Below are positions 39,269-59,109 of a stretch of 64,000 nucleotides of DNA, one piece after another (within the stretch, counting starts at the first letter, position 1; every line of letters begins with the position of its first letter). A model generated the notes under the pieces. It worked only from the letters and a program-made list of their open reading frames with translations, was not told the origin of the DNA and ran no database searches. The stretch comes from Schlesneria paludicola DSM 18645. Its GTDB lineage: Bacteria > Planctomycetota > Planctomycetia > Planctomycetales > Planctomycetaceae. The position numbers and the translations under genes were made by a program. The stretch is taken from contig NZ_JH636436.1 in assembly GCF_000255655.1 (NCBI RefSeq), positions 654,985 to 718,984 of the forward strand, given 5' to 3'.

Positions 39269-39277
39269 CAGTAATCA

Positions 39278-39623: not shown

Positions 39624-39659
39624 AGCCCGGTGTCCTTTGCGTGACACCGGGCTCTTTTG
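39624..39659. terminator. GC-rich hairpin (11-bp stem agcccggtgtc/gacaccgggct) followed by a T-run; reads as a terminator in both orientations
   Basis: Perfect inverted repeat with cttttg on the plus strand and tcttcgttttg on the minus strand; lies at the upstream (minus-sense) edge of the tRNA array. Confidence 0.4.
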
Positions 39660-41161: not shown

Positions 41162-41388
41162 TGCGCGGATGGTTGCGGACTCAATTTGTTGATGGGGCGA
41201 AGTTTATGGCAAAGGAAGTGAAAATCAAGGCTGTGCAGACGGACAGTCTGTCGCGCTCTCTCGATTCCCGGTTCGTCGAGACTTCCCGAAACCATCTGCA
41301 ATGAAGCCAGAATTCGTGGGCTCTCTCGCGAGATTGTTAAGTGTGTCCAGCGATGTTCTTGGGGCGCGATGTCACAGAGGGATCTTCG

Positions 41389-41527
41389 CGGTAACCGTTC
41401 ACAGTCTCAGCAGAGGGGGGGGGCAGGAATATTTACGCGGTTCAATCGGAATCCCACAGTGCATCGACTGGGGTAAGCCTTCCCTTAGCTGCGGGAAAAT
41501 GAGCCAGTCCTCGGCCTGTGAACGCTG
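41389..41527. repeat. MITE-like element copy 1 (left TIR ggtaaccgttcacag; right TIR degraded)
   Basis: ~85-90% identical to 56842-56977 and, inverted, to 43009-43148. Confidence 0.6.
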
Positions 41528-41796
41528 ACATCGTCGCATCCACGAATCAGAAGGCCCGAATGAGAGATGCTTTCGGACACCCGCAGCCATAGCGAATGTG
41601 CGTGCGAGAGAATTTGAGTCGTGCTGACGATTGACTCGTCGCGAAGATGAACGGCGATGTCCCATTCGTTGGGGCTCATCGCGTCGATGTTTTGTGCCGG
41701 GCAGCTTGCGACCAATTATTCAAAAGGCTCGAACTTCTAGAGGATGCCGTGTATTTGAATCCGCTCGCACGTGACCATCGCCACCTACCGCGAATA

Positions 41797-42489
41797 CTAG
41801 ACAACTACCAGGCGCTCCGAGCGTTCGGCGCTTCTTAATTCCAGAAATTCAAGCCATTGATTCATTCCCAAACCCGTCTTCGCCGAAAGTTCGAGAATCC
41901 TCATGCCGGGTCGAACAGCCTGAACGCTCGCGTAAGCCGCTTCTCGATCGAACTCTGTCACGGTTGCGAGTTCGATTTTGGTGATGATCGCCACATCGGC
42001 GGTGTTGAAGATGGTGGGATACTTCCGCGGTTTGTCTTCCCCCTCAGTCACGGAAAACAGGACGAGCCGCATTTCTTCGCCCAAGTCGTATGTTGCAGGG
42101 CAGACCAGATTGCCGACGTTTTCAATAAATAGAAAGTCGAGTTCGTCCAGGTTCCAGCCCACAAGTGCGTCGCTCACCATCTTGGCTTCGAGATGGCAAA
42201 CGGAACCGGTGATGATCTGCCGAATCGGGACACCCGCGCGTTCCAGTCGCCGGGCGTCATTCTCGGTTGCCAGATCACCCACGAGTGCGGCACAGCGATA
42301 CCGTTCGCGCAGCATTGTCAGGGTTCGTTCGAGAAAGAGCGTCTTTCCCGTGCCAGGGCTTGAAACCAGACTGACCACGAAGACTCCGTTGTTGTGAAAA
42401 CGCTGCCTGAGTAGTCGCGCATCGTTGTCGTTGGCCTTAAGGACCTGGGTTCTTACCTCGACCATTCGAGTTGTCGTCGGGAGGCTCAT
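41797..42489 (-). CDS. hypB: Hydrogenase nickel-incorporation GTPase HypB
   Basis: P-loop GTGKT plus CH motif of HypB. Start set at the ATG overlapping the hypA stop (ATGA). The longer ORF N-terminus overlaps hypA. Confidence 0.85.
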   Translation of the reverse strand: MSLPTTTRMVEVRTQVLKANDNDARLLRQRFHNNGVFVVSLVSSPGTGKTLFLERTLTMLRERYRCAALVGDLATENDARRLERAGVPIRQIITGSVCHLEAKMVSDALVGWNLDELDFLFIENVGNLVCPATYDLGEEMRLVLFSVTEGEDKPRKYPTIFNTADVAIITKIELATVTEFDREAAYASVQAVRPGMRILELSAKTGLGMNQWLEFLELRSAERSERLVVV

Positions 42490-42833
42490 GACTCGATCTC
42501 CATTGCAACGATTTCCAGTTCGCGCCCACAGACGACATCTCCGCATGGTGTCCCGCATTCGGGGCAGCACAAGTCCTGGAAGCAGGGCAATTCGCGTTCG
42601 GTGTCGCAGACATGACATCGTACGCGCAGGGGGACTTCTTCGACGACCAATTCGACCTTTGAGAATGGCGACATTTCTCGGGCCAAGTCGAACGCGGATA
42701 TCAGCGCCTGCTTGATTACTCCCGACAGGGGGCCCAGTTTCAAGTAGATCGATTTGATCTCCGCGCCGCCGCGGCGGTCCGATTCTTCACCGGCAATATC
42801 GAGAATACTCATCGCCAGAGACAGTTCGTGCAT
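42486..42833 (-). CDS. hypA: Hydrogenase maturation Ni-metallochaperone HypA
   Basis: MHELSLAMSILDI... N-terminus and CxxC-x12-CxxC zinc finger. Confidence 0.85.
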   Translation of the reverse strand: MHELSLAMSILDIAGEESDRRGGAEIKSIYLKLGPLSGVIKQALISAFDLAREMSPFSKVELVVEEVPLRVRCHVCDTERELPCFQDLCCPECGTPCGDVVCGRELEIVAMEIES

Positions 42834-43008
42834 TCGAGTATCGTCCTATGACATTTCGCTGATACGGATATAGCGCGCCAAACCAGGAAACTCTGCGAAC
42901 ATGCAAACCAGAACCCAGAGGAGAATGAAAACTCCGAGTACAATAGCAAAGATGTCTTCGGCGATGGCCATGATGACTTTCATCGTGCGTACCCCTTTTC
43001 ACATTGTG

Positions 43009-43148
43009 TGGTAACAGTTCACAGGCTGGGAACTGGCTCATTTTCCCGCGGTATAAGGAAGGCTTAGCCCAGTCGATGCACTGTGGATTCCAATTGAACC
43101 GGGAAATTGTGCTTGTCCCGCTCACTTTGGGCTGTGAACGGTGACCAT
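43009..43148. repeat. MITE-like element copy 2 (inverted; TIRs ggtaacagttcacag / ctgtgaacggtgacc)
   Basis: Covers the last ~28 codons and the stop of the hydrogenase maturation protease gene. Confidence 0.6.
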
Positions 43149-43696
43149 TGTGTGATCAGATCGTTTGTTGGCGGCACGTTATCCGTGGTCTCGTCGGTGA
43201 CAACTGGCATTCGTGCATAGACTTCGTTCGTGAGCAGCGCAATTTGATGGATTGCACCTTCGATTGCCGTTTGGACGGTTGGAGTTAATCCCATCTTGCC
43301 TTCGTGTTCATCGCCAAGGTCTTCCGGCTCGCACCCGACCAGCAGAATTCGACCTGGGGTTCCGCCGAATGCCCGTACCATCCGCAATACATTCAGCGGG
43401 TGCATGCTGTGCGCATCGAGAATCGAATCGGCTTCGTCAATATCATGCAGATCGAGTTCCATCGTGTAGACCGTGCCGGGAGTGCCACCTTGTGGCGTGG
43501 CGTCGACCAGGATTGTCGTCTCAATTCCATCCATCAGTGCGTATGCCAGATCCATGCCTCGAATGCCGTAATCGATCACACTGACGCCGCTTGGCCATGT
43601 TTGACGTTGTAGACGTTGGACAACTTCGCAGCCGAAGGCGTCGTCTCCACGGAAGATGTTTCCAATTCCCGCGATCAACAGGTGTCGCAACATCAT
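43064..43696 (-). CDS. [NiFe]-hydrogenase maturation endopeptidase (HybD/HupD family)
   Basis: GIGNIFRGDDAFG N-terminus and His/Asp metal ligands; the C-terminal ~28 aa are encoded by the MITE-like repeat. Confidence 0.85.
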   Translation of the reverse strand: MMLRHLLIAGIGNIFRGDDAFGCEVVQRLQRQTWPSGVSVIDYGIRGMDLAYALMDGIETTILVDATPQGGTPGTVYTMELDLHDIDEADSILDAHSMHPLNVLRMVRAFGGTPGRILLVGCEPEDLGDEHEGKMGLTPTVQTAIEGAIHQIALLTNEVYARMPVVTDETTDNVPPTNDLITQWSPFTAQSERDKHNFPVQLESTVHRLG

Positions 43697-44076
43697 GGGC
43701 TCTCCTGTTGATTGTCGGGCAAACGCATCGGTTCAACTTCCTCTGTCGAAAAGAAGAATCGGTGGCCAGGTTTCCTCAAGAATCCCAAATCGCGACCGGG
43801 GTCATCGTCCAGGACGACTGCCAGATGAATCTGACCTTCGAAGTCCTGTTCAATGGCTTCGATCGTGGCCACCTTTTTCTGAAACGCGAGGTCCATGATG
43901 TCTCCTCGTTTTTTTGGCCAAAGGCGGACCTTGTCGCTCACCCTCAAATCGACTCCAAATACGCGAACACTTTCAAGTCGCGTTTCGACATCCAGTTCGG
44001 GCCAGGGAAAGTCCTCCATCATCGTTTTAAGACTCACTTTCTTTCGTTGCGTCGAATTCCTCTTCGAACCAATCAA
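43693..44076 (-). CDS. Hypothetical protein in the hydrogenase locus
   Basis: 127-aa ORF, translationally coupled (overlapping stop/start) with its neighbours; no family recognised. Confidence 0.4.
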   Translation of the reverse strand: MIGSKRNSTQRKKVSLKTMMEDFPWPELDVETRLESVRVFGVDLRVSDKVRLWPKKRGDIMDLAFQKKVATIEAIEQDFEGQIHLAVVLDDDPGRDLGFLRKPGHRFFFSTEEVEPMRLPDNQQESP

Positions 44077-45125
44077 GCTTGTTCGCGTGTCATTCCTCGA
44101 AGCGCGCCATGCAACTTTTCGAAGTGCTCCTGGGGTAACCCCTCTGCGCGTTCCAAAAGCCTTCGTGCTTGTTCATCAACGCATCGCATTTCTCGCTGCT
44201 CTCCGGGCGTCAACGTCATGACTCGAAGCATGAGCATTTCGTCGATTTCCGTTGCGTCGAAAAAGTCACCCGGACTTTCCTGTGCAATTTGGGGATAGTC
44301 ATACAGAATGATGGGTGAGGCCAGTATCGTTTGTCGCGACTTGTTCTCGCCGACAAGCACAGGCCAACAACCTCGCTGCTGACAGGTCGCTGCGGCATCG
44401 GCCAATTCCAACGGTGGCTCCAGCAGTGAAACAAATTCTCCATCGCTGACCGTCAATACAGCATGCGTCGAGGCCAATGACGAGAGAAGGACTTGGTCAC
44501 GAGTTGACGAGTTCGCTTCAGGCAGCGATGTCTCATTGTGGATGACGACTCGCAGCCGATAGACCTGGCCCTCAAGGCGAGTGGCACTGACCACGACGGT
44601 TCCACGAAGTTCCTTCTGCGTCCGTTGGACCCATCCCAAAGGTTGCAATGACTGTTCGCAGATCTCTTCCGTCGTCGAGTTCGGCCCGAATCGGAAACGA
44701 AGTACATGTGTCGTGTCACAAAGTTCTTCAATGCACAGTTCGAGCGAGTCGACCTCGCGCTCCTCTGCCTCCTGCCAGGTCTGATAGCGATGCCCATTGA
44801 CTTCGAGGCACTCAACGGGCCGCGATGATCGTGGCGAGATCGCCTGGTCGGGTGAATCGCGATGGACAAATTCTTCGACTTGACGCTGAAGCAAATGCAG
44901 AAAACGCGTTCGGACTCTTATCGAAGCGAACCTTTCCTGTAACAGGCATTCCACCTGCATCGTCCAGGACTCGGTCCCCGCTTGGGCCTGGCTGTAGGCT
45001 TGCGGTACAAGGACGCCAAAGTTGAACCTTTGTCGATTTTTCACTGCCGACGCCCGATAGGGGTACAGTAGATAGCCTTCGTAGAGTATGGATTGTGCGA
45101 TTCGATCAACGAGCGGTTGAGTCAT
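44073..45125 (-). CDS. Hypothetical hydrogenase-associated protein
   Basis: Start set at the ATG overlapping the upstream stop (ATGA); conserved-looking but unassigned. Confidence 0.45.
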   Translation of the reverse strand: MTQPLVDRIAQSILYEGYLLYPYRASAVKNRQRFNFGVLVPQAYSQAQAGTESWTMQVECLLQERFASIRVRTRFLHLLQRQVEEFVHRDSPDQAISPRSSRPVECLEVNGHRYQTWQEAEEREVDSLELCIEELCDTTHVLRFRFGPNSTTEEICEQSLQPLGWVQRTQKELRGTVVVSATRLEGQVYRLRVVIHNETSLPEANSSTRDQVLLSSLASTHAVLTVSDGEFVSLLEPPLELADAAATCQQRGCWPVLVGENKSRQTILASPIILYDYPQIAQESPGDFFDATEIDEMLMLRVMTLTPGEQREMRCVDEQARRLLERAEGLPQEHFEKLHGALRGMTREQA

Positions 45126-45769
45126 GTCGGCACCTCCAATGCGGTGGATGCCAGAAGACGTTGCAATGTCTCGTCCCAAGTGGGAATTCCTTGATGACAT
45201 TTGAATCTGTAGAGTTGATCGAACACATCGTGTCTCAGGCAAAGCCAGGCGGAATTGGGGTAGTAGAATTCCATCATCTGCTTCCAGGTCGAAACGGGCA
45301 GTCGATATCGAGCTTCCTTCGACCAGGGGATTTGGGTCACTTGCAGCATGCCCGTCTCTTGCCGGTAGAAAATTGAGCCACTGAACAGCAGCAAAAGTGG
45401 GATATCTCCTTGCTCCAGGCCATAGAAATACTTGGTTGCGGCAACGTTGAAGTCGTATGTGCAGGGGATTTGAACGTCAACCAGAACCTCACGCTGGAAC
45501 GGCGGGACGAGTGTGCTGACACGTGTCCAATGCATGCTGCGAAGTGTCTCACCCCAGCGATCGGCGGCACCGAACAGGTCAATCAGATTCGTTTGTTCAT
45601 TCTGGGTGTAGGCCCGCCGATTGGATTCGATTTGGATTTGACATTGCAAATTCACATTCTGGATGGACTGCGATACTCCGCCCTTGATACGGAGTTTTAG
45701 GATGAGGGTCGGTACGACCGCGTGTTCAAGTGACGTTGCATCCTCGACATGGAATTCAAGATCCGACAT
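45122..45769 (-). CDS. Hypothetical hydrogenase-associated protein
   Basis: ORF in the coupled gene string between the NifU-like gene and the protease; start uncertain. Confidence 0.4.
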   Translation of the reverse strand: MSDLEFHVEDATSLEHAVVPTLILKLRIKGGVSQSIQNVNLQCQIQIESNRRAYTQNEQTNLIDLFGAADRWGETLRSMHWTRVSTLVPPFQREVLVDVQIPCTYDFNVAATKYFYGLEQGDIPLLLLFSGSIFYRQETGMLQVTQIPWSKEARYRLPVSTWKQMMEFYYPNSAWLCLRHDVFDQLYRFKCHQGIPTWDETLQRLLASTALEVPT

Positions 45770-46439
45770 GACCGGGCCTCCGATCAGGGGTCGCCCGTTG
45801 TCCGAGAGAATCGAAGAACTCACGCACGCGATTCCAGACGTTTGTACCTCCCGAAAGGCCACGCCAGTGCAGTCTCAGTATGCCCGCGAGTTTATAGCAC
45901 TCGTCGATGGGCGTGATGAAATACTCATCGACCAAGAAGCCGGCACGGATACCCATCCGATTGACCAGCAACGCTTCCACGTCGGGTTGCAGCGAATTGA
46001 GTGGCTTACAATTTCGAATGAGCTCCTGCCATTTCTCAAAATTCAGCAGTGATTCCACGGGCCCCGCTGGACTGGGATACAGGACCATTGTTTTGGCTGC
46101 GGAGCTGTCAAAAAAGAAGAAGGCCAAATTGATGGGGATCATCAGGCCGTCCCAGTCGGCATCCGGAATTTGAAAGTCTCGCAATTGATGAATGTCGCGT
46201 GGAACTCGGCGATACTTCATCTCTGCCGCACCCGAGAACAGCAGTGCGCAGGCCGTACACGAACACAGCAGGTGTCGGTTTTTCGGATCGAGCAGATGAT
46301 CATGTTCGGATGGCAATTGCAGGCCACAGAGCTCGCAACGTCGGACGTCGGCGGGGCGCGGCTTGGTGAAGCTTCGCAATGTCGCGAATGTCTTTCGGAA
46401 CGATGCTTCAGGGATGCGGACTTGTGGCGAAGTGGTCAT
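45756..46439 (-). CDS. Cys-rich hypothetical protein (CELCG...CSCTAC motif)
   Basis: Start at the ATGA overlap with the upstream NifU-like gene; possible metal-binding accessory protein. Confidence 0.45.
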   Translation of the reverse strand: MTTSPQVRIPEASFRKTFATLRSFTKPRPADVRRCELCGLQLPSEHDHLLDPKNRHLLCSCTACALLFSGAAEMKYRRVPRDIHQLRDFQIPDADWDGLMIPINLAFFFFDSSAAKTMVLYPSPAGPVESLLNFEKWQELIRNCKPLNSLQPDVEALLVNRMGIRAGFLVDEYFITPIDECYKLAGILRLHWRGLSGGTNVWNRVREFFDSLGQRATPDRRPGHVGS

Positions 46440-47308
46440 GGTGACACCGCCAATGCGATGCGTGTTTTTCCGCCTGACTGAAGCAAAGGCAGCGGTTCCA
46501 GGTGCAGGGCGGGTAGATCGAGGCAGCGCCCTGCTCGCATGACGTCGAACTGGGTTCCGCAATCTGGACACGAAAGCACACTGCCCGAAAGAGTGCCCGT
46601 TTTCAGCGAGTTTCCGCAGTGTGAGCAACCGTTTTGATAGGCGTAAAGACCCGTGTTCAAACGTAGAAATAACACGCTTTGATCGTGCAGGTCGCGCGTG
46701 TCGACTTCTCCGTCGGCCAGGTCATGTAAGCCCGCGATTTCCTCCCACTGCATTGCCGAAGCCGCATCGGCGGCATGCTCGAACGATTCGAGCGGAATGA
46801 ATCCGGGCAATGAGGCGGGAACGACACCCTCGACTTCCAGACCCAGAACATCAGGAGCATGTTCACTGATCGCTTCTTCGATCGCCATCTTGAGTGTCAT
46901 CGCGGACGACGGGCAGCCGTGACAACTTCCTTGGAGCTGCAGCCGGACAAGTCCTTCGTCGATTTCCAAGAGTTCGACATTTCCGCCATGCGACTTCAGG
47001 TAGGGTCGAACCTGCTCCAGAGCTCGTCCCACGCGCGTCACCAGATCGACAGGATGCAATTCGTGCAGAAGTAACAATCCCGCAACCAGTTGGTCCTCGG
47101 CAAGTCGCAGGATGGCCCCTTCGCTGGTGGCGATCTGCTGTGTCACGATCTTCAACAAACGCTCTAAACCAGTGCGGTGCAGTTCCATCACCAATTGCAC
47201 CAACTCGGTGGCGGTATCACGAACCTCCTCATCCGCGAGATGATCGAGGCGTGCGACAAGCGTGTCGATCATCTCAAGCCTCGTGTGCAACGTTGCCTGT
47301 TCGGTCAT
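46436..47308 (-). CDS. NifU-like Fe-S cluster assembly domain protein with C-terminal Cys-rich module
   Basis: NifU C-terminal domain signature (LKSHGGNVELLEIDEGLVRLQLQGSCHGCPSS) plus CSHCG...CPDCG. Confidence 0.65.
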   Translation of the reverse strand: MTEQATLHTRLEMIDTLVARLDHLADEEVRDTATELVQLVMELHRTGLERLLKIVTQQIATSEGAILRLAEDQLVAGLLLLHELHPVDLVTRVGRALEQVRPYLKSHGGNVELLEIDEGLVRLQLQGSCHGCPSSAMTLKMAIEEAISEHAPDVLGLEVEGVVPASLPGFIPLESFEHAADAASAMQWEEIAGLHDLADGEVDTRDLHDQSVLFLRLNTGLYAYQNGCSHCGNSLKTGTLSGSVLSCPDCGTQFDVMRAGRCLDLPALHLEPLPLLQSGGKTRIALAVSP

Positions 47309-47418
47309 GTCTGGTTGCCCCTTTTCATGAAACGGGAACGAAGCGACAAATCAACCGTTCTGGTCGAAAGAAGCGTGGATGACGCCGTGTCGTCAACGGC
47401 ACCCGATCGCGTTGTGGG

Positions 47419-49224
47419 TCACGTCTGTTGAAAATGCTGTCCGAACATCGGCGAATGATTCAGGTCCAGGTGCTTTCCATTTCCCAAATACATATGCACT
47501 CCGCATGGCAGGCAAGGATCGAAACTTCGGACAGCGCGCATGATGTCGATCCCTTTGAAATTTTCCGGTCCGTTTTCTTCGAAGATGGGTGTGTTCTGGA
47601 CCGCGTCTTCATACGGGCCGGGAGTTCCATAGATATCTCGTGGATTCGCATTCCAGGGCGTTGGAGGATACGGGTGATAGTTCGCAATCTTTCGGCCGCG
47701 GATCACGACGTGGTGCGACAAGACACCGCGAACGGCCTCGTGGAATCCGCATCCGATGGCCTCATCGGGGACTTTGAACTCTGTCCAGGTCTTGGTTCGA
47801 CCCACGTGCAATTCCTTCATCGCCTTTTCGGCAAAATAAAGTGCGCATCCTGCGGCATAGGCCTGAAAATAGGTACGGGCACGATCGCGTTCAATCGCGT
47901 TGCTCCACTGGGGAATCTTCCATTCGAATTCGACTTCCGGCTTGGTTGCCGTTTTCGGCAGGTAAATCTTGACGCTGGTCCCCGTCGACTTCACGTATCC
48001 GATATCCACTTTGCCAGCCAATGCTGTGGCCCAGAATCGAGCGATCGGTCCGCCGCCAGTATCCAATGCCAGGTAGTCGCCGGTGCGTTTGTCGAACCAA
48101 CGCGGGCACATGACCCAGGTGTAGTTTCCGTTGAAATCTCGCTTCTGTGGTTTCGGGATTGTTGTCTGATTCCAGGGGTGACGCTGATCCACCGGGTTGC
48201 CCAGCGGGTCTTGTTTGACAAACGTCTCTTTGTCTTCCCAGTCCTCATAGTAAGAGCTGCCGAGTAAGATTCGTATGCCGAGATTGATGTCCACGAGATC
48301 CGTCGTGACAAGTTTTCCGTCGACGACAATGCCTGGCGTGACGAACATCTGGTTGCCCCAGTCATTCATCCGCTTGTACGTATAGTCACAATGGTCGGGG
48401 TCTTGAAAAGATCCCCAGCAGCCCAGCAGGATTCGTCGGCGTCCCACTTCCTCATAACCGGGCAGTGCCTGGTACCAGAAGTCGAAGAGATCGTCGTGTA
48501 GCGGCAGGCATTTTTTCATGAACTCGACATATCGCATCAAACGCACGATGTAGTCGGTGAAAAGCTGAACCGTTGGAACCGTTCCGACGCCGCCGGGATA
48601 CAGTGTGGAAGGGTGAACGTGGCGACCTTCCATCAGGCAGAACATTTCGCGGGTGTAGCGGCTGACCAGTAATGTTTCGCGGTAGAATTCTCCTGTAAAT
48701 GGATTCAGAGCGCGCATGATGTCGGCGATCGTTTTGAATCCATGGTCCGCGGCATGAGGCGCTTCCGTCTTCTCTGCGAGCGCCAGGACACCAGGGTTCG
48801 TTTCGCGAACCATTTGTTCGCAGAAGTCGACCCCAACCAGATTATCCTGGAAAATGTTGTGGTCGAACATGTACTCGGCGGCCTCACCCAGGTTGACGAT
48901 CCATTCGGCAATCGCGGGCGGCCGTACTCCAAAAGCCATGTTCTGGGCATAGTTTGCACAACAAGCGTGATTGTCGCCGCAGATGCCGCAAATGCGGCTG
49001 GTGATAAAGTGCGCGTCGCGCGGATCTTTGCCTTTCATGAAGACGCTGTATCCGCGAAAGATCGACGATGTGCTGAAGCATTCAGCGACCTTTCGATTGC
49101 CGAAGTCGATCTTGGTGAAGATTCCCAAGCTACCCACGATGCGCGTAATTGGGTCCCAATTCATCTCAACGAGATTGCTGCCTTCCGCGCGATTTCGTTT
49201 CCTTGGCTCGACGGTTGTGGCCAT
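47419..49224 (-). CDS. [NiFe]-hydrogenase large subunit, group 1h/5-type signatures
   Basis: AGGAG 8 nt upstream of the chosen ATG. L1 motif TSRICGICGDNH and L2 motif SFDPCLPCGVH. Confidence 0.9.
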   Translation of the reverse strand: MATTVEPRKRNRAEGSNLVEMNWDPITRIVGSLGIFTKIDFGNRKVAECFSTSSIFRGYSVFMKGKDPRDAHFITSRICGICGDNHACCANYAQNMAFGVRPPAIAEWIVNLGEAAEYMFDHNIFQDNLVGVDFCEQMVRETNPGVLALAEKTEAPHAADHGFKTIADIMRALNPFTGEFYRETLLVSRYTREMFCLMEGRHVHPSTLYPGGVGTVPTVQLFTDYIVRLMRYVEFMKKCLPLHDDLFDFWYQALPGYEEVGRRRILLGCWGSFQDPDHCDYTYKRMNDWGNQMFVTPGIVVDGKLVTTDLVDINLGIRILLGSSYYEDWEDKETFVKQDPLGNPVDQRHPWNQTTIPKPQKRDFNGNYTWVMCPRWFDKRTGDYLALDTGGGPIARFWATALAGKVDIGYVKSTGTSVKIYLPKTATKPEVEFEWKIPQWSNAIERDRARTYFQAYAAGCALYFAEKAMKELHVGRTKTWTEFKVPDEAIGCGFHEAVRGVLSHHVVIRGRKIANYHPYPPTPWNANPRDIYGTPGPYEDAVQNTPIFEENGPENFKGIDIMRAVRSFDPCLPCGVHMYLGNGKHLDLNHSPMFGQHFQQT

Positions 49225-49333
49225 GAACGGACTCCTGTGAAGCAAGCAGAACTTGATTGGAGATTTCAGTGCATCGCGAAATGTTTGGACCACGATCGTG
49301 GTCTGTCATGTTTCGAAGAGGAACGTTTTGCAG

Positions 49334-50395
49334 CTACTTCGACTTGACGTATTTGCTCTGATAGCCCGTCGTCAGCGTCGGTTGGTTATGTCGCCACTTT
49401 GGTTCTTTGTTGAGTTTCCGCTGCGTCATCCGGCGTAATGGCGTGATGATCTTGCCGTAAAACTTCGATGCCAAAGTCGAGACTCGTGCGCCTGGTGGCT
49501 CGTCCATAAAGGGCATGAACTTGTCAGGAAAACCGGGCATTGTGCAGCCGATGCAAATTCCCCCCACGTTCGGACAACCTCCGATGCCGGCCATCCAACC
49601 TCGTTTCGGGACATTGCAGTTCACGACGGGGCCCCAGCAGCCGAGTTTGACCAGGCACTTGGGTGATCCATATTCCGATGCGAAGTCCGACTGTTCGTAA
49701 TAACCCGCTCGATCGCAGCCTTCGTGAACCGTGCGCTCGAACAGCCATTTCGGTCGTAACGCTTCGTCAAGCGGGATCATGGGGGCCAGACCCGCGACCT
49801 GGTACAACAGGTACAGCAGTGTTTCCATGAAATTGTCGGGCTGGACGGGACATCCCGGCACGTTGACGATCGGAAGTCCGGACTTCGACTTCCAGTCCCA
49901 GCCCAGGTAATCTGCGACACCCATGGCACCCGTCGGATTGCCAGCCATGGCATGAATTCCACCGTAGGTCGCACATGTACCAGCACAGACAACGGCCACG
50001 GCTTTGGGGGCGAGCCGGTCAATCCATTCGTTGGTGGTAATCGGTTGGCCTGTTTTTGAGTCGGTTCCCAGTGCCGCCCAGTAGCCTTCGGACTTAATCT
50101 TTTCGTTGGGAATCGATCCTTCGAGGACCAGTACGAAAGGATCAAGTTCTCCGCGAGCGGCCTGATGCCAGTACTTCATGAAGTCGTCTCCGACCTCATA
50201 GGCAATGACGGGGTTGTGAACATGGACTTTGGGCAAGCCTGGAATGGCCCCCAAGACAATGTTCTCAATACTGGGTTGGCTGGCGGCCGTGATCGAGACA
50301 GAATCGCCATCGCAACTTAGTCCCGTTGTCATCCAGACGATATGAATTTCTGCAATGTCTGGTTTTCGCTTGGCTTGGATCGCGGGTGAGGGCAT
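49334..50395 (-). CDS. [NiFe]-hydrogenase small subunit (no Tat signal)
   Basis: Proximal, medial and distal Fe-S cluster Cys motifs (GLSCDGDS, CAGTCATYGG, CPNVGGICIGC); no RRxFxK leader. Confidence 0.9.
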   Translation of the reverse strand: MPSPAIQAKRKPDIAEIHIVWMTTGLSCDGDSVSITAASQPSIENIVLGAIPGLPKVHVHNPVIAYEVGDDFMKYWHQAARGELDPFVLVLEGSIPNEKIKSEGYWAALGTDSKTGQPITTNEWIDRLAPKAVAVVCAGTCATYGGIHAMAGNPTGAMGVADYLGWDWKSKSGLPIVNVPGCPVQPDNFMETLLYLLYQVAGLAPMIPLDEALRPKWLFERTVHEGCDRAGYYEQSDFASEYGSPKCLVKLGCWGPVVNCNVPKRGWMAGIGGCPNVGGICIGCTMPGFPDKFMPFMDEPPGARVSTLASKFYGKIITPLRRMTQRKLNKEPKWRHNQPTLTTGYQSKYVKSK

Positions 50396-50713
50396 TCGAA
50401 ATTCTCCTTCTAAGCGGCTTTAGGCCTGGCTAGATCCATCACATTTTTCAGACAACCCCCTTGTTGATTCGAAGTGGGGCGATCGTTTGGACCGCGACGG
50501 CGATTTGCAGCAAGGACGCAAATACGAAGCTCCTGCCGCGTTTTAGATGGGGCAACAGCGCAGGGTATGGCCGAAATCTGCCAACCTGACGCGGTGGGAT
50601 TGAGGGATCTTGTTTGCCATGTCTTGATGCCGTCCGGCTGACTGCACCGCCTGCTGTCTCCGCCCCAGGATCGGCGGGGGTTCGAGCGAACGATGATGCA
50701 GCATGAGTCGCCA

Positions 50714-51799
50714 TCAGCAAATCCTTGGCAGCTGTTCCCCGGCTAGCATTGTCACAACTCGCTCGCCGCCGATCATCGATTTCAGCACAACGATGCCGGG
50801 GTGATCAGAGACAATTTCGCCAATCGCGACGGCGTTCTTCCCCAGTCGATTGCTGCGCATCACTTGCAACAGGCCCTCAGCCGCATCTGCAGGGACGACC
50901 GCGACGAGCTTGCCTTCATTGGCAACATAGAGGGGGTCGAGGCCCAGCATTTCGCAGGCACCGCGGACTTCGCGGCGTATCGGCAGGCGGGACTCCCACA
51001 GTTTGACGCCGACGCCCGACGCATCCGCCAGTTCATTCAGTGTGCTGGAAACGCCACCCCGGGTCGGGTCACGCATGCAGCGAATTTTAGGGCAGGCCTT
51101 GAGCATCGCTTCGGTCAGTGCATTCAATGGCGCAGAATCGCTTTCCAGTACCGTTTCGAACTCAATTCCTTCTCGTTGCGACATAATGGTTACGCCATGA
51201 TCGCCGATTGTCCCAGAGATCAGTACCTGGTCACCAGGACGGGCATTGTGAATCGACAATGAACGACCTTCTGGAATCCAACCGATTCCCGAAGTGGTGA
51301 TGAAGACCTGATCGCCTTTGCCACGATTCACGACCTTGGTGTCACCTGTGACAAGGGTGACTCCCGCGTCTTTGCACGCGGTGCGCATGGAGGCCACGAT
51401 GCGTCGCAAATCCTCAATCAGCAAGCCTTCTTCCAGGATGAAGGCGGCAGAGAGGAATTGCGGAATTGCTCCTCCTACGGCCAAATCATTCACGGTGCCA
51501 TGTACGGCCAGCGTTCCGATGTCGCCGCCCGGGAAGAAGAGCGGTTGCACGACGAAGGAGTCGGTTGTGAAAGCCAGGCGGGGGATCAGATGGCTGTTGG
51601 ATCTGATCCAGCCAGACAGATCGAGCGTCGCTTGATCCTCAAGTGCCGCGAGGACGGGATTGTCCCACTCTTGCAGAAACGTATTTCGGATCAAATCGGC
51701 CGACATTGTCCCGCCACTACCGTGTCCCAAGAGGACCCGGTCAGATTTGCTGATGGGACGAGGGCAGCTCAATTGCCCAATGTTGATGGCGCCGGGCAT
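50714..51799 (-). CDS. hypE: Hydrogenase maturation factor HypE
   Basis: AIR-synthase-like fold with C-terminal PRIC (HypE Cys-terminus). Confidence 0.9.
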   Translation of the reverse strand: MPGAINIGQLSCPRPISKSDRVLLGHGSGGTMSADLIRNTFLQEWDNPVLAALEDQATLDLSGWIRSNSHLIPRLAFTTDSFVVQPLFFPGGDIGTLAVHGTVNDLAVGGAIPQFLSAAFILEEGLLIEDLRRIVASMRTACKDAGVTLVTGDTKVVNRGKGDQVFITTSGIGWIPEGRSLSIHNARPGDQVLISGTIGDHGVTIMSQREGIEFETVLESDSAPLNALTEAMLKACPKIRCMRDPTRGGVSSTLNELADASGVGVKLWESRLPIRREVRGACEMLGLDPLYVANEGKLVAVVPADAAEGLLQVMRSNRLGKNAVAIGEIVSDHPGIVVLKSMIGGERVVTMLAGEQLPRIC

Positions 51800-51865
51800 A
51801 CCGTTCCTATCAGAAATTCAGTGCCGCACTCAAAACCAAGTGGGATGGGCTCGACCAACCCTCAT

Positions 51866-52981
51866 TTAGATTTCTGAACCCGCGGCAACGGGATGCCGCA
51901 ATCGCCCATAGTTGTAGTAAGCCGCGCAGGCACCTTCAGACGACACCATGGTGGCTCCCAAAGGATGTTCGGGCGTGCATGATTTGCAGAACGCCTGGCA
52001 TTGATGAGGCTTTCTAATACCTTGCAAAATCAAACCGCTGATACATTGTTCCGATTCGTGGACCGTGACCTGTTGAACATTGAATCTCGTTTCGGCATCG
52101 AACTGTTGATACGGTTCGGTCAGGCGGTAGCCGCTCAAGGGAATTTCGCCGATTCCGCGCCATTTGCGATCGCAGACTTCGAATACTTGGTGAATCAGTT
52201 CAATGGCACGTGGGCTTCCGTCACGGCGGACCGCGCGTGAGTATTGATTGCCGACGCCGACTTGCCTCCGTTCGAGCATGCAGACGCACTCGTAGATTCC
52301 TTCAAGAAGATCAAGTGGCTCGAAGCCTGTGACCACGATCGGAATCTGAAACCGTTCGGCGATTGGGACGTATTCTTCCAACCCCATTACGGCACATACG
52401 TGCCCTGCGCCAAGAAAGCCCTGAACTCGGTTGTCGAGTGACGAAAGGATGGCGGACATTGCCGGGGGAACGAGTACATGAGAGACCAGCACCGCGAAAT
52501 TGCTCAGTTTTCGCTTCTTGGCCTGCGCAACGGCCATGGCATTTGCTGGCGCGGTGGTTTCAAACCCGACCGCAAAGAAGACCACGACGCGATGTGGGTT
52601 TTGCTCGGCAATCTTCAGGCAATCGAGTGGCGAATACACAATCCTGACATCAGCACCCGTCGCTTTGATGGCAAAGAGGTCAGACTGGCTACCCGGCACT
52701 CGCAACATGTCTCCGAACGAGCAAAATATGACATCCGACCGCGTCGCAATCGCGATCGCCTTGTCAATCAGTTCAAGCGGTGTGACGCAGACCGGACAAC
52801 CCGGCCCGTGCACCAGTTCAACGCCATTCGGCAGTAGTTCATCGATTCCATATTTCACAATTGTATGTGTTTGCCCGCCGCACACCTCCATGATCGTCCA
52901 GGGGCGAGTGACGACGCGAGAGATAGCGGTTATCAATTGCTTTGCCGCGACGGGATCACGGTATTCATCTTGAAATCTCAT
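51866..52981 (-). CDS. hypD: Hydrogenase maturation factor HypD
   Basis: [13 protein letters not shown] and CxxC...C Fe-S motifs. Confidence 0.9.
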
Positions 52982-52990
52982 GGTTGCCTT

Positions 52991-53284
52991 TCACGAGATT
53001 CTGGCGCGGAATGAGTCGCGATCGTCTGCGACGAACGTTTCACCGTGACTTAGTTCCTGCAGATCATCCATTTCCTTCAGGAACTGAAAGACTCGCTGTG
53101 CCTCATCGGCGTCGATGACTTGTAACGAAAAGCCGACATGCACAATCACGAAATCTCCAATCTGGGCTTCGGGTGTGTGTTGCAGGCAGACACGCTTGAA
53201 CACGCCGCCAAAGTCGACTTTCGCCATCAACATGTCGTGTTCAGAATAGGTCTCGATGACCTCGCCGGGAATGCCGAGGCACAT
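52991..53284 (-). CDS. hypC: Hydrogenase assembly chaperone HypC
   Basis: MCLGIPGEV N-terminus. Confidence 0.85.
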   Translation of the reverse strand: MCLGIPGEVIETYSEHDMLMAKVDFGGVFKRVCLQHTPEAQIGDFVIVHVGFSLQVIDADEAQRVFQFLKEMDDLQELSHGETFVADDRDSFRARIS

Positions 53285-53298
53285 GACGACTCCCTCTG

Positions 53299-55644
53299 TT
53301 ACGGACCAGGATATGATGCCGCCGCGACGGCCAACTGACCCAGACTGATTCCGCCGTCGTTACAAGGAACGAGATGTTGGCGATAAACCTTGAAGCCATC
53401 TTTCGACAACTGTTGCGCCACTTCGATGGAGAGCAAGGAGTTCATGAAGACTCCGCCACTCAGGACGACTTGCTCGAGCGCGAACTCAGTTCGCAGCTTA
53501 TGACAGATGCGTTTCGTCACGTCCGTGATTGTGGAATGAAAACGTCTGGCAATCAATTCCCTTTCAGCAAAATCAGAAATATCTTGAAGAATCGCTCGAA
53601 TCAATGGGCGTGTGTCGATGCTGAAGCACGTTCGCCTATTCAGATCAAGTTCCATATCAAGTTCGAATGGATACGCGTGATCTGGTGAGGCTTGGCTTGC
53701 GAGTAATTCCAATTCCACGGCCGCCTGCCCTTCGAAGGTGACCGTGGTTCGTATTCCTAATAGCGCTGCGACCGCATCGAACAAACGCCCCATGCTTGAC
53801 GTTAACGGGGTGTTGAATCGGCGACTCACCATTTGGTAAATCGTTCTTGCCGCGTCGTGCCCGACGTGTTCGATCAGGGCAGGCGATTGGCAGTCGGCAT
53901 CGATCAAGTGAGCCATCGCGCTGCGCCAGGGCTCGCGAATGGCCGCGTCTCCACCCGGAAGCCCGACATAACGCAGGTGAGCAAAACGTTCAAAGCCTTG
54001 ATAGTCGGCGACCAGGAATTCTCCTCCCCAAATATGCCCATCAGTTCCGTAACCGGTTCCGTCGAAGGCAACGCCAATCACGGGCCCCGATAATGAATGC
54101 TCGGCCATACAACTGGCGATATGTGCGTGGTGATGTTGCACGGCCAGTAACCGAAGAGACTGTTCGGCGGCACGGCGCCGTGCGTACGTGGTCGAGGCAT
54201 AATCGGGATGCAGATCATGCACGACGCAGGCAGGGCGTGTTTCGAAGACTGCTTCAAAGAGCCCGATGTCGCGTTCAAACGCTTCGAACGCACTGAAGTG
54301 ATTCAGGTCTCCCAGATGATGACTCAGAACGGCACGCTTCTCATGACCTAATGCAAAGGTCGACTTGAGCTGCCCCCCGACGGCGAGGGTCGGCAGGGCG
54401 AGGGCAATCGGCAGCGATAATGGTTCCGGTGCGTAACCTCGAGATCGCCTCAGAAGCGTTTCAACACCGTCGATCGATCGAACGACGGAATCGTCGCATC
54501 GAACGTGGATCGAACGATCGTGGGCGAGGACGAGATCTACGATGTTTTCGAGCCTGGCGATTGCATCGTCGTCGTCGTAGGCGATTGGTTCGTCCGCACG
54601 ATTGCCACTGGTCATCACCAGAATTGAGGACTCGACAGCACTCAACAAGAGATGATGCAACGGCGTATAGGGGAGCATCATTCCGAGATTAAGGCTGCTC
54701 GGGGCAATCGACGGGGCGACGGTTTCCGCGCGATCATCTTGACGAGTTCGCAATAGTACAATCGGCCGGCGCGGCGATCGAAGTAGTGCGGCTTCCGCTG
54801 AGTCGACCTCACAGTAGCGTCGAGCTTCATCGACGCTGTCGACCATCAGCGCGAACGGCTTTTGATCACGGTGTTTCCGGCGTCTGAGTTCGGAGACCGC
54901 AGAGTTGTTGCGAGCGTCACAGACGAGGTGATAGCCGCCCAGCCCTTTCAAGGCACCAATCTTTCCGTTCCGGATCGCCGCTACGAAATCGCAGACTGGG
55001 TCCGTAGTTTCGATTGGCTGGCCTGTGTTCGTCAGAAGTCGCAATCGTGGGCCGCAGGCCGGGCATGCAATCGGTTGAGCATGGAATCGACGATCGGCCG
55101 GATTGACGTATTCGCGTCGGCAATCCGCACACATTGTGAAGATGGCCATGGTTGTTCGCAGGCGATCATACGGAGCTCCGCGGATGATCGTCAGGCGCGG
55201 GCCACAGTTCGTGCAGTTGACGAATGGATACAGATATCTTCGGTCACTTGGATCAAAGAGTTCTCGGACACAATCGGCACAGGTGGCAACATCGGGTGAG
55301 ATCGAGATTGCCGATGGAACTTCGCTGTCGATGCTTTCCTTGATCTGAAAATCGACGTCGCCGAGAAGCGGCAGCGAACGCGATTCAACCGACTCGATTC
55401 GTGCCAGCGGCGGGGCGCCACTTGTGAGCATGATCGAGAACTCCACGACCGATTCGGGAAGGCCTTCGATTTCAACATGCACCATCCCGGATTGGTTTCG
55501 CACGAAACCCACGAGTCCCAAGTCGGTCGCGATCCGATGTACGAAGGGCCGAAACCCAACGCCCTGAACGATCCCTCGCACGAGAAAAGCGCGGCGTTCG
55601 CACGTCGTCTGTGGGATGCCAAGACTAGGACGTTTCACGGACAT
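53299..55644 (-). CDS. hypF: Carbamoyltransferase HypF
   Basis: Acylphosphatase domain (VQGVGFRPFV), two CxxC-x18-CxxC zinc fingers, YrdC and Kae1-like domains. Confidence 0.9.
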   Translation of the reverse strand: MSVKRPSLGIPQTTCERRAFLVRGIVQGVGFRPFVHRIATDLGLVGFVRNQSGMVHVEIEGLPESVVEFSIMLTSGAPPLARIESVESRSLPLLGDVDFQIKESIDSEVPSAISISPDVATCADCVRELFDPSDRRYLYPFVNCTNCGPRLTIIRGAPYDRLRTTMAIFTMCADCRREYVNPADRRFHAQPIACPACGPRLRLLTNTGQPIETTDPVCDFVAAIRNGKIGALKGLGGYHLVCDARNNSAVSELRRRKHRDQKPFALMVDSVDEARRYCEVDSAEAALLRSPRRPIVLLRTRQDDRAETVAPSIAPSSLNLGMMLPYTPLHHLLLSAVESSILVMTSGNRADEPIAYDDDDAIARLENIVDLVLAHDRSIHVRCDDSVVRSIDGVETLLRRSRGYAPEPLSLPIALALPTLAVGGQLKSTFALGHEKRAVLSHHLGDLNHFSAFEAFERDIGLFEAVFETRPACVVHDLHPDYASTTYARRRAAEQSLRLLAVQHHHAHIASCMAEHSLSGPVIGVAFDGTGYGTDGHIWGGEFLVADYQGFERFAHLRYVGLPGGDAAIREPWRSAMAHLIDADCQSPALIEHVGHDAARTIYQMVSRRFNTPLTSSMGRLFDAVAALLGIRTTVTFEGQAAVELELLASQASPDHAYPFELDMELDLNRRTCFSIDTRPLIRAILQDISDFAERELIARRFHSTITDVTKRICHKLRTEFALEQVVLSGGVFMNSLLSIEVAQQLSKDGFKVYRQHLVPCNDGGISLGQLAVAAASYPGP

Positions 55645-55883
55645 CCGGTCACTTGTCTCCGATCGAGTTTATTCTGAATCTCGCGGGTAGCGTATCACGA
55701 AACGAAGGGCTCTCGGAATCGGACAATCGCCTTTTTCTTCGTGCGTATGTGATGTGCATGTGACGGATGATTCGATGGCAAGTTAATATCACGTTGTCGA
55801 CGTCATATTCCGGGCGCGATTCGATTTCTGGATTTGCCGTTGTGCGTCGAGTGTCGGCTTGCCACTTCCATGGAGCATCAATA

Positions 55884-56750
55884 ATGATCACACGTAGGAT
55901 GTTCGCCACGGTGTTTGTCGTCACACTGTGGTCTGTGATGGGAGTTGACTCTTCCTCACCGTTACGAGCGCAAGAGTCAGAGGGTCTGAGCGATTCCATC
56001 ATGCAAATGACGCTGGGACGCGTCGTTTCGGGTGATGTCCAGGTGCTTGATTTGACTTATTCCTTGAATGAGAAGACCCCGTTTTGGCCGGGCGACGATT
56101 ATCAGCCATTTCAATTGCGCACAATTGCGACCTTGGAAAAGAACGGCGTTTCATCCAAAGCATTTTCGATGCCCGAACATTTTGGAACGCATATCGATGC
56201 GCCATGCCATTTTGAAAAAGGAACACCGACTGTCGACGAGATAGCGATCGGCGATTTGTTCGCACCCGGTGTCGTGATCGACGTCACTGTTCAGGCGGAA
56301 GCGAATGCCGACTATCGCTTGTCTGTCGACGATCTATCGGCCTGGGAAACACGTCATGGACGAATTCCGGATCGTGCCGTCGTCTTTCTGAAGACGGGTT
56401 GGAGCCGCTTCTGGAATAGCAACGCCCGCTATCGAAACCAGGATCTCCATGGGACAATGCATTTCCCGGGTTTCTCAGAGGAATCGGCTCGGTGGTTACT
56501 GAAAGAGCGCGATGTTCGTGGGGTGGGAATCGACACACTGAGCATTGATCATGGACCTTCAAAAAACTTCATCGTCCATCATGTGATCAATGGCGCGGGT
56601 CGTTACGGTCTTGAGAACGTGGCGGATTTGGACATGCTTCCCCCGCGAGATTTCATTCTGATCGTGGCTCCCATCAAGATCACGTCCGGCACTGGCGGGC
56701 CGACGCGACTCTTTGCTGTCCTGCCTTTGCGAAAGCCTTTGGCTGAATAA
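55884..56750 (+). CDS. Secreted cyclase-family protein (kynurenine formamidase-like)
   Basis: Start set at the internal Met with a signal peptide (MITRRMFATVFVVTLWSVMG). HFGTHIDAPCHF metal-binding motif. Confidence 0.7.
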   Translation: MITRRMFATVFVVTLWSVMGVDSSSPLRAQESEGLSDSIMQMTLGRVVSGDVQVLDLTYSLNEKTPFWPGDDYQPFQLRTIATLEKNGVSSKAFSMPEHFGTHIDAPCHFEKGTPTVDEIAIGDLFAPGVVIDVTVQAEANADYRLSVDDLSAWETRHGRIPDRAVVFLKTGWSRFWNSNARYRNQDLHGTMHFPGFSEESARWLLKERDVRGVGIDTLSIDHGPSKNFIVHHVINGAGRYGLENVADLDMLPPRDFILIVAPIKITSGTGGPTRLFAVLPLRKPLAE

Positions 56751-56841
56751 GATCAATCTGCAAATTGAATCAATTTGGTTGATTTCCCGGCGCTGATTCA
56801 TAGTTTGCAGATTCGGAGCAGGCGTAGTTGTGACTTGATGT

Positions 56842-56977
56842 GGTAACCGTTTACAGTCCGAAGAGAGGGGGGCAGGCACATTTTCCCGGTTGATTGGAAC
56901 CCACAGCGCATCGACGAGGGTAATCCTTCCCTTTACGCGGGGAAATGAGCCAGTCCCCGGCCTGTGAACGGTTACCG
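56842..56977. repeat. MITE-like element copy 3 (intact 15-bp TIRs ggtaaccgtttacag / ctgtgaacggttacc)
   Basis: Intergenic; best-preserved copy of the family. Confidence 0.65.
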
Positions 56978-57180
56978 TGACGTGATCAATCGCCGAGCTT
57001 GCCCAAAGCAATGTGTTCGTTGACTCCAATTGCTGTATGCCGTTCAATCTAAGTTGAATCTGAGGCACGTCACAGATCTGGTCAACGACTGTTGGATTCC
57101 GATGGCGTCTTTGTTCTGATGTGAATCAGCTATTTTCAGATTGATTCAGTCGATTTGATCGAGCTTGTGCGAGGGTTTCG

Positions 57181-59109
57181 ATGCGTGATCGCCTGCGAAT
57201 TATCGTCATTTCATGCGTGATGATAATGATCGCTTTGGGAGTTGTGGGATCGCTCTATCAGTCGATGCCACAAAGGCCGACAGCAAGCAAGTCACCGGCA
57301 GGCACGGCGGCTAGGGGCAAGTTTCGCCATCAGAATTTCGAGAAATATACGCTGTGGTGGGACCAGATTCCGGAGCGACTGCGAAAAGAAGGCTGTCCTC
57401 CCGGGACTCAGGCCAATATTCATCCCCAAGACTACGCTGGCCCGGAAGCCTGTAAAAACTGTCACAAGAAGCAGTACGAGTCGTGGTCAAAGCATCCGCA
57501 CCGTTGGATGAACTCACTTGTTGAGAATACGACTGTCCGCGGCAATTTCAATGATCATCGGATGTCGTACCTCGGTGGTGATGTGACGTTCTACAAAGCG
57601 GCCGATACTTATCGCATGCGTCTGGAACGAGACGACGTCCGTCGGGAATTCGTGGTTCAACAAACGATCGGATCTCGCTACTTCCAGTATTACGTCGGCA
57701 AGCAGCTTGAGGGACCTGAGCCGTCCGATCATCCGCTCTATTTCGAAGACCATGTTCTGCCATTGGGGTATTGGTTGGATCGTGAAGAGTGGGTGCCGAC
57801 CGTACATATCGGCGAAGAGTTCCGCGAGGGAGAAAGGCCTGATCCGTTTGTGCAACGACCTGCATATTCAGGCAATCTCACGGAGTATGCCGATAAGACG
57901 ATCGACTTGTATCGCAGTCAATGTAACTTTTGTCACACCACATTCGCCATTGGTGATATGTTTGTGCGTTTCCAGCGAACTTTCGGTCGGCACATCCCGG
58001 TGCAGCTTGACGTCTCGTTATCGGAATATGTGCAGAGCTCGCGGCCGGAAATGTGGCCCGAAGGACGCAAGCCGTATGACATGGCCGACGAGGAATTCGC
58101 GAAGATCCTTCAAGAATTCCACGGACTCGATGCGAGAAAGCACGCGGTTACTTTGGGGATCAGTTGTGAAGCATGTCATCTGGGGGCGAAAGACCATGCG
58201 GAAGGACGGTTGAAGAGACCCAGGTTCTTTCCGACAGGTTCTGAAGTGGTCACGCGTACGACGACATTGACCTGCGATCTCGGACGAACTCATGACAACG
58301 TAAACTGGGCCTGCGGACGCTGTCACGCTGGCGAAAGGCCGCAGTATGCCAATGGAACCTCGACCTGGAATTCGACGGAATACTCCGACGCCATGCGAGG
58401 TAGTTGCTATTCTCAATTGACCTGTATCAAGTGTCACGATCCACACGAGTCCATTGGTCAAGAATGGTCTCAGACCCCAGCCAAAGACGACGCAAGTTGT
58501 CTGAGCTGCCATCAGAAGTTTGAAGCGGAGACAGCCCGCATCGCACATACACATCATCCGCTGGATCATGAGGGTTCACGGTGTATGAACTGTCACATGC
58601 CGCGGATCAATGAGGGCCTTCAGGAAGTCGTGCGTACGCATACTATCTTCTCGCCGACGAATCGCGTCATGATTGAGACGAATCAGTTGAACGCGTGTAA
58701 CCTTTGTCACCCAGAGCAACCAATCGACTGGACGTTGACGCATTTGAAGAGATGGTATGGCACGACGTTTCAGCAACGAGCGATCGACACGAGTTATCCG
58801 AATCGGAATCTGCCGGTGGCAATTGGTTGGCTGAAGAGTGATCGTGAAGCGGTTCGATTGGTTGCCGCGGATGCGATCACCAGGACCGATGCCCGCTGGG
58901 CGCTACCCGACCTGATTGGTGCACTGGATGATCCGTTCATACTCAATCGCCAGTTCGCTCGAATCGGACTGGAGAAAATGCTGAAGGTGAAGCTGAGCGA
59001 TTTTGGTTACCAGTTTTATCAGTCGCGAGACGAGCGGGTTGTTCCATTGCGAAAAATGAAGGAACAACTCATCCCTGCTACAGTCGACGTCGATGCGGAA
59101 CGCCGCTAG
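57181..59109 (+). CDS. Multihaem cytochrome c (8 CxxCH) with N-terminal membrane anchor and HEAT-like C-terminus
   Basis: Eight CxxCH motifs (CKNCH, CNFCH, CEACH, CGRCH, CIKCH, CLSCH, CMNCH, CNLCH); N-terminal TM helix. Confidence 0.8.
   Translation: MRDRLRIIVISCVMIMIALGVVGSLYQSMPQRPTASKSPAGTAARGKFRHQNFEKYTLWWDQIPERLRKEGCPPGTQANIHPQDYAGPEACKNCHKKQYESWSKHPHRWMNSLVENTTVRGNFNDHRMSYLGGDVTFYKAADTYRMRLERDDVRREFVVQQTIGSRYFQYYVGKQLEGPEPSDHPLYFEDHVLPLGYWLDREEWVPTVHIGEEFREGERPDPFVQRPAYSGNLTEYADKTIDLYRSQCNFCHTTFAIGDMFVRFQRTFGRHIPVQLDVSLSEYVQSSRPEMWPEGRKPYDMADEEFAKILQEFHGLDARKHAVTLGISCEACHLGAKDHAEGRLKRPRFFPTGSEVVTRTTTLTCDLGRTHDNVNWACGRCHAGERPQYANGTSTWNSTEYSDAMRGSCYSQLTCIKCHDPHESIGQEWSQTPAKDDASCLSCHQKFEAETARIAHTHHPLDHEGSRCMNCHMPRINEGLQEVVRTHTIFSPTNRVMIETNQLNACNLCHPEQPIDWTLTHLKRWYGTTFQQRAIDTSYPNRNLPVAIGWLKSDREAVRLVAADAITRTDARWALPDLIGALDDPFILNRQFARIGLEKMLKVKLSDFGYQFYQSRDERVVPLRKMKEQLIPATVDVDAERR

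Follow-up and report, generated by a model that had tools for sequence, protein, structure and literature searches.

The miniature inverted-repeat transposable elements, or MITEs, of bacteria, e.g. the Correia/NEMIS elements of Neisseria, ERIC/IRU of enterobacteria, RUP of Streptococcus pneumoniae and Nezha of cyanobacteria, are small (80-160 bp), non-coding, multi-copy sequences with terminal inverted repeats, target-site duplications and a long hairpin, which lie between genes, are occasionally fused in frame to gene ends, and can sit in operon mRNAs when they are co-transcribed. Here we describe a repeat with these same properties from a stretch of 64,000 nucleotides of Schlesneria paludicola DSM 18645 (RefSeq assembly GCF_000255655.1, contig NZ_JH636436.1, positions 654,985 to 718,984 of the forward strand; hereafter the window), where one of three copies has become the 3' end of a gene for a [NiFe]-hydrogenase maturation protease. 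The best explanation of these repeats as a whole, to which we assign a probability of roughly 0.88, is that they are old copies of a non-coding, non-autonomous MITE of about 135 bp. The family is new, whereas elements of this kind are well known. Its sequence is unrelated to that of the known bacterial MITEs and its host belongs to another phylum, the Planctomycetota; its target duplication is 8 bp long, whereas Correia elements duplicate TA; and, unlike the described families, it is modular, with one or two conserved hairpin modules and a variable loop of 4-60 nt between the termini, and with modules that also occur free of termini. A full-text literature search found no description of MITEs in Planctomycetes.

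The copies lie at 41390-41529 (+; copy A), 43011-43146 (-; copy B, in the 3' end of the protease gene) and 56842-56975 (+; copy C), each being 134-140 bp long with the element ends defined as (G)GTAAC...GTTAC. In a three-way alignment that included the flanks, the mean column identity is 80% over about 137 nt, and similarity ends abruptly at terminal inverted repeats of 13-15 bp. A scan of the window with the 15-mer GGTAACCGTTCACAG, allowing up to three mismatches, returned six matches, which are exactly both ends of each copy, as compared to a mean of 1.37 in shuffled sequences, none of which (0/100) reached six. The same copy relationships were recovered by a repeat finder (pairs D11, D15, D18, I1, I2, I4 and I18), in which the inverted pair I1 joins copies A and B over 70 nt with 87% complementarity. 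A preliminary description of this DNA had proposed three copies with 15-bp terminal inverted repeats, two of which bracket the hydrogenase maturation genes hypA and hypB, and all of this holds: each copy is present with ends shifted by only 1-3 nt, all six termini are accounted for by the scan, and copies A and B do enclose hypA-hypB, in inverted orientation. The internal palindrome said to be shared (CATTTTCCCGG...CGGGAAAATG) is intact in copies B and C and degenerate in copy A, and the term "three-copy" is right for the window and too small for the family, which has at least a fourth copy in the genome and is found phylum-wide.

The body of the element is one long imperfect palindrome, and a hairpin would form from it in single-stranded DNA or in RNA. 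The best-preserved hairpin is that of copy C (minimum free energy of the RNA fold, -68.5 kcal/mol; z = -5.8), followed by copy B (-46.1 kcal/mol; z = -2.8), and copy A folds no better than its shuffles (z = -1.25), being also the most decayed copy at its ends (right terminal repeat, GTCAGCGTTCACAG). None of the frames stays open through each of the three copies, as indels shift the frames from one copy to another and most frames contain stops. The open reading frames (ORFs) that run through the copies, at 41301-41528 (+), 42787-43125 (-) and 56559-57068 (-), match no protein family and are likely annotation artefacts of the repeat.

Each copy carries a flanking duplication of its own. Copy B is bordered by two identical 8-bp sequences (43003-43010 and 43147-43154; ATTGTGTG on the forward and CACACAAT on the reverse strand; 8/8 match), copy A by ATCTTCGC (41382-41389) and ATCGTCGC (41530-41537), which agree at 7/8 positions, and copy C by CTTGATGT (56834-56841) and CGTGACGT (56976-56983), a decayed duplication matching at 6/8. 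Because every copy has a separate duplication, the three insertions in the window were independent, and the same separately matched duplications rule out an inversion between A and B since insertion. When all complete elements with both termini were considered (n = 19; from the window, nine metagenome-assembled genomes (MAGs) of Planctomycetota and two viral contigs), the 8-bp flank repeats were perfect in nine and matched at 7/8 or better in 13, as compared to 1/342 when left and right flanks of different elements were paired as a control. An empty site was found as well, in two related loci (L024/L025) that encode a protease 77% identical to that of the window and carry no element. With copy B and one duplication excised, the window aligns to these loci without a gap over 83 nt spanning the junction; a global alignment of the unexcised insertion site was uninformative, the protease tail having diverged, and excising the element first gave the clean match. 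The reading as a non-autonomous transposable element, already put forward in the preliminary description, is thus backed by inverted termini, 8-bp duplications, an empty site, the lack of a shared open frame, and further copies elsewhere. We use the term MITE because of these duplications, the distribution of the element, the empty site, the lack of coding capacity and the further copies, and we regard the copies as old because they are only ~80% identical, the ends of copy A are decayed, and so are the duplications of copies A and C. In the mechanism that we propose, the element would be cut and pasted by a DDE transposase that another part of the genome provides in trans, and staggered cleavage of the target would leave an 8-bp duplication on each side.

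Copy B shows what such an insertion can do to a gene. The ORF at 43064-43696 (-) encodes a HupD/HycI-type [NiFe]-hydrogenase maturation protease of 210 amino acids (Pfam HycI over residues 23-152, E = 2.9e-18) and is 100% identical to the annotated Schlesneria paludicola "hydrogenase maturation protease". The element boundary falls in codon 183, so that residues 183-210 (WSPFTAQSERDKHNFPVQLESTVHRLG) and the stop are element-encoded, with copy B contributing some 27 codons together with the TAA stop (43064-43066). Among 11 aligned orthologues the core is conserved to about residue 160, with D18, D19, E24, D65 and H96 among the invariant residues; beyond that point the orthologous tails vary in both length and sequence, and none resembles the element-encoded one. 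The HycI core and the invariant D, E and H residues are intact in the window protease. Upon excision of copy B and one duplication, the ORF ends in ITQCEKGYAR at a putative ancestral TGA stop (42980-42982, -), which means a loss of 7 ancestral codons and a gain of 27. The repeat-encoded C-terminus of about 28 codons and a stop that had been noted before is therefore real, at about 27 codons plus the stop, and it is aberrant relative to the orthologues, none of which shares it, so that coding conservation is excluded as a source of the similarity; the wording that the element "replaces the 3' end" of the gene is correct in that the tail is element-encoded, and overstated in that only 7 codons of an unconserved tail were displaced. 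Copy B landed 7 codons before the protease stop, such that translation now reads 27 codons into the element and then terminates, changing only an already variable C-terminal tail and leaving the protease core untouched. The new tail is probably harmless. A precedent for repeat-encoded codons is provided by the Rickettsia palindromic elements (RPEs), in which a palindromic repeat likewise adds translated codons to an otherwise functional protein; unlike these internal in-frame elements, copy B replaces only the extreme, non-conserved C-terminal tail and supplies the stop codon.

The insertion also changed what follows the protease gene. Between it and hypA lies a conserved hydrophobic ORF of 45 amino acids (MKVIMAIAEDIFAIVLGVFILLWVLVCMFAEFPGLARYIRISEMS; 42846-42983, -), which has no Pfam or NCBIfam match and may be an unannotated small membrane protein of the hydrogenase maturation operon. 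The restored protease TGA (42980-42982) overlaps the ATG of this ORF (42981-42983) as ATGA, the same arrangement as in two orthologous loci (L022/L023), where the start of an ORF of 44 amino acids shares an ATGA with the protease stop and the next genes are hypA and hypB; a 44-amino-acid ORF is likewise present at the empty-site loci. In the window, the protease stop now lies 80 nt upstream of the start of the small ORF, and we infer that the insertion uncoupled its translation from that of the protease. Both the in-frame capture of the last codons of a gene and the disruption of the ATGA overlap are tidy but ordinary consequences of such an insertion. A stable hairpin would in addition be placed inside the protease/small ORF/hypA/hypB transcript, and as a hypothesis the copies may thereby influence hyp expression. 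Within the copies, we found neither a consensus sigma-70 promoter (-35/-10 hexamers) nor an intrinsic-terminator consensus (a GC hairpin followed by a T-run); on each strand, the inner hairpin has the T-run upstream of it.

Beyond the window, we searched 185,579 species genomes for a right-arm pattern and obtained 21 stretches, 19 of which lie in the nine Planctomycetota MAGs (Pirellulales, Thermoguttaceae, Planctomycetaceae and Planctomycetia); the two matches in Microbacterium were rejected as chance occurrences in coding sequence. In viral contigs, GGTAACCGTTCACRG matched 47 times, 45 of these being single chance matches and two being further MITEs (in loci L044 and L066), and a metagenome scan with the subfamily-specific core GCATCGACNNGGNTAANCCTTCC yielded no element, its four matches being due to chance. 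Host copy number was approached by proxy, through a six-frame translation of the consensus searched against a protein database, in which four proteins represent a lower bound. This query revealed a fourth Schlesneria copy within WP_010583220.1 (P0123), a "hypothetical protein" from another contig of S. paludicola, whose element-encoded peptide is broken by an internal insertion, and it also recovered two ORFs from another NCBI genome. A JGI protein (P0121) was seen to be the translation of three tandem hairpin modules. The minimal form of the element, about 81 bp (locus L018), consists of a terminus, a stem of ~21 bp (GGGGACAGGCACATTTTTCGGCC / GGCCGAAAAATGAGCCAGTCCCC), a short loop, GGCC and the second terminus; in longer forms there is a further hairpin (GGGGACTGTCCC-ATTTTCGCGG...CCGCGAAAATGGGACTGTCCCC), in place of which the Planctomycetaceae and Schlesneria subfamily has a loop of 40-55 nt. 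Three elements combine the same termini, GTA(A/G)(C/G)CGTTCAC, with unrelated interiors (L001:5133-5256, L044:7664-7787 and L066:5918-6057), their duplications being perfect in L066 and L044 and 7/8 in L001, which fits one shared transposase that mobilises several MITE lineages. The interior of the element at L066:5918, in a viral contig, is AT-rich, and the transposase family recognising these ends is therefore not confined to Planctomycetota.

As for the identity of this transposase, the element termini, (G)GTAACCGTTCAC, read GTAACCG (or GTCACCG, GTCAGCG) in the window, and the related copies L001:5133 and L003:6321 begin GTAAGCG (GTAAGCGTTCAC). Inverted repeats of the IS66 family of insertion sequences (IS) start with GTAAGCG and are bordered by 8-bp direct repeats (PMC11946415), as illustrated by ISPsko1 (repeat GTAAGCGTCCGGCGAACTCACCTT, starting GTAAGCGTCCGG; PMC12888890), ISDge4 of the ISBst12 group (GTAACTGCTCAGCA, with an 8-bp repeat; PMC12898284), and captured IS66 members that give 8-bp repeats (PMC3281130). 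The element thus resembles the IS66 family, including the single-ORF ISBst12 group, in its GTAA(C/G)CG termini and its 8-bp target duplication, and differs from it in having no transposase gene and in that it matches published IS66 repeats over no more than about the first 8-11 nt. Because of these termini and the duplication length, an IS66-family transposase is the most likely mobiliser, on circumstantial grounds. ORFs beside copies with a single terminus were inspected and proved to be host genes only (rpiA-like, protoporphyrinogen oxidase-like, and a peptidase). A six-frame scan of all loci for the IS66 TnpC-like motif DETP...G.LW found none, which is a weak test.

Several observations weigh against the interpretation as a cut-and-paste MITE, or against parts of it. 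The window termini are GTAACCG and not the canonical GTAAGCG, and families other than IS66 also produce 8-bp duplications. Neither an autonomous element with these termini nor an IS66-type transposase was found in the window and the ~0.8 Mb of fetched loci, where terminus pairs 0.3-6 kb apart were searched for in all loci and the neighbours of single-terminus copies were inspected as above. Current mobility is doubtful, the copies being only about 80% alike and having decayed ends. About one third of the genome matches consist only of a hairpin and a right terminus, and the MAG DBS1-3.bin21 holds both hairpin modules of the MITEs without any terminus (L002:6186-6239, L003:2801-2852, L003:857-907 and L006:1533-1551); simple cut-and-paste transposition does not explain these, which may be decayed MITEs or an independent REP-like repeat that travels within the MITE, and the terminus-free modules, with the tandem modules of P0121, suggest that the hairpin also exists in REP-like fashion outside the MITE. 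Finally, compensatory changes in the inner stem suggest a constraint beyond the neutral decay of a dead transposon.

This last point bears on the possibility that the MITE hairpin has been co-opted and is now a selected structure, either as an RNA stability or processing element in operons or as a DNA hairpin bound by the transposase or a host protein, with the window copies influencing hyp expression. Over 23 copies, which come from at least two orders, pairing in the 21-pair stem reaches 87.6%, and the stem shows 27 double-sided changes, as compared to 12.8 +/- 2.6 in shuffles (0/500 reach the observed value), counts that overstate the number of independent events since the 23 copies share descent and fall into a few related subfamilies. 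Pairing drops to 56% or less when the stem register is slid, four inner-stem variants occur (CGGCC/GGCCG, CGCCC/GGGCG, CCCGG/CCGGG and CAGCC/GGCTG), and nearly all copies keep an A.A mismatch at two positions of the stem, 7 and 11. The occurrence of hairpins without terminal repeats points in the same direction, as does copy B itself, which lies inside an operon with an RNA fold of -46 kcal/mol (z = -2.8). The decayed hairpin of copy A (z = -1.25), however, argues against selection at that site, the window copies are of mixed orientation to transcription, relatives without an element at site B keep the operon, and the copies contain neither of the promoter and terminator consensus sequences named above. 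Rfam searches likewise gave no match at E <= 1 over 39500-58000, and in L003 only a chance microRNA match (E = 0.64), and the reading as a riboswitch or known RNA was rejected on these grounds. We consider a co-opted, selected hairpin unlikely, and hold in equally low regard the broader proposal that the module GGGGACAGGCACATTTT-stem...stem-AAAATGAGCCAGTCCCC is an undescribed, phylum-wide structured element of Planctomycetota which spreads alone as well as between IS66-like termini and has a selected role, be it in transposase recognition as a DNA hairpin or in mRNA processing or stability.

Two other explanations are much less probable. The repeats could be REP/REPIN-type palindromes, spread by a RAYT transposase, an IS200/IS605-like tyrosine enzyme, instead of a MITE moved by a DDE transposase. 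Like REP sequences, the element is dominated by a short palindromic hairpin, and in some Planctomycetota MAGs its units stand alone or in tandem; moreover, REP families have been reported in Planctomycetes (PMC3733652). The only related paper found deals with REPs tagged with GTAG/CGTC. No GTAG or CGTC tag stands at the foot of the hairpins described here, and no RAYT gene was seen near any copy. True terminal inverted repeats are present, and most complete copies stand between clear 8-bp duplications, which REPINs do not make on insertion; this origin is therefore very improbable. The other explanation traces the similarity to coding or regulatory sequence that is conserved in the hydrogenase cluster, or sees in copies A and B the two arms of a composite transposon with which hypA-hypB arrived, as might be thought from two inverted copies bracketing these genes and one copy being translated within the protease. 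The translated tail, however, is absent from all orthologous proteases aligned, and relatives lacking the element show the same gene order (protease, small ORF, hypA, hypB). Each copy has its own matching duplication, which excludes joint transposition, and copy C and the related copies sit in unrelated gene contexts. The empty site for copy B, like the separate duplications, refutes this explanation, to which we give hardly any credence. Old copies of a non-autonomous MITE accordingly remain the reading that we prefer.

The surroundings of the copies are as follows. Copy A sits between genes, downstream of hypB and upstream of an ORF of 335 amino acids (40154-41161, -), and copy C lies between a cyclase gene (55767-56750, +; Pfam) and a multihaem cytochrome gene (57181-59109, +; Pfam), upstream of the latter. 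The hypA gene spans 42486-42833 (-; Pfam HypA, E = 1.5e-25) and hypB, with a Pfam CobW/HypB/UreG domain, 41797-42618 (-). The longest hypB ORF, at 273 amino acids, overlaps hypA by 133 nt; because the orthologue, at 229 amino acids, overlaps the hypA stop by 4 nt at its own start, the true start is probably the ATG at 42489 (MSLPTTT...), giving 41797-42489. The hydrogenase cluster at 43693-50395 (-) is syntenic with L022/L023, where the order is small and large [NiFe] subunits, a NifU-Rieske protein, DUF5947, DUF6084, two unannotated ORFs, protease, small ORF, hypA and hypB. In the window the DUF6084 gene was assigned by Pfam to 45122-45862 (-), and the two ORFs between it and the protease (44073-45242 and 43693-44076) have no family match. 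We take this order to resemble that of high-affinity (group 1h-type) uptake hydrogenase operons.

Elsewhere in the window, 30 tRNA genes for most amino acids are packed into 6.5 kb on one strand, at ~4.6 per kb (32959-39482, -, plus 31058-31132, +). This array qualifies as a "tRNA array unit" as defined in a published survey (at least 20 genes at 2 or more per kb), which found such arrays in only a few Planctomycetes (PMC4758250). Inside it lies a second, unrelated repeat family (34518-34619, 36738-36837 and 39007-39095; pairs D2, D6, D7, I3, I5, I6, I8 and I9) that is built of purine-rich and pyrimidine-rich inverted arms of ~35-50 nt (GCGAGAAAGTAGACAGTAGAGAGTTGAAAGTAGA / TCTACTCTC...CTTTCTCGC).

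For S. paludicola, the element explains the aberrant, repeat-encoded C-terminus of an annotated hydrogenase maturation protease, with a consequence for hydrogenase biology that is probably small, the protease core being intact, and the conserved, uncharacterised 45-amino-acid membrane ORF upstream of hypA may merit attention in itself. For the phylum, the finding adds a MITE family with IS66-like ends where our literature search found none described. The element also accounts for at least one "hypothetical protein" of S. paludicola, WP_010583220.1, as a translated repeat, and masking of the family would clean up planctomycete annotations. What holds residual interest is the modular hairpin, which with its covarying stem is spread across planctomycete orders and merits a study of covariation and strand bias; if it does have a selected role, copy B would be a functional modulator of the protease/small ORF/hypA/hypB transcript instead of neutral debris.

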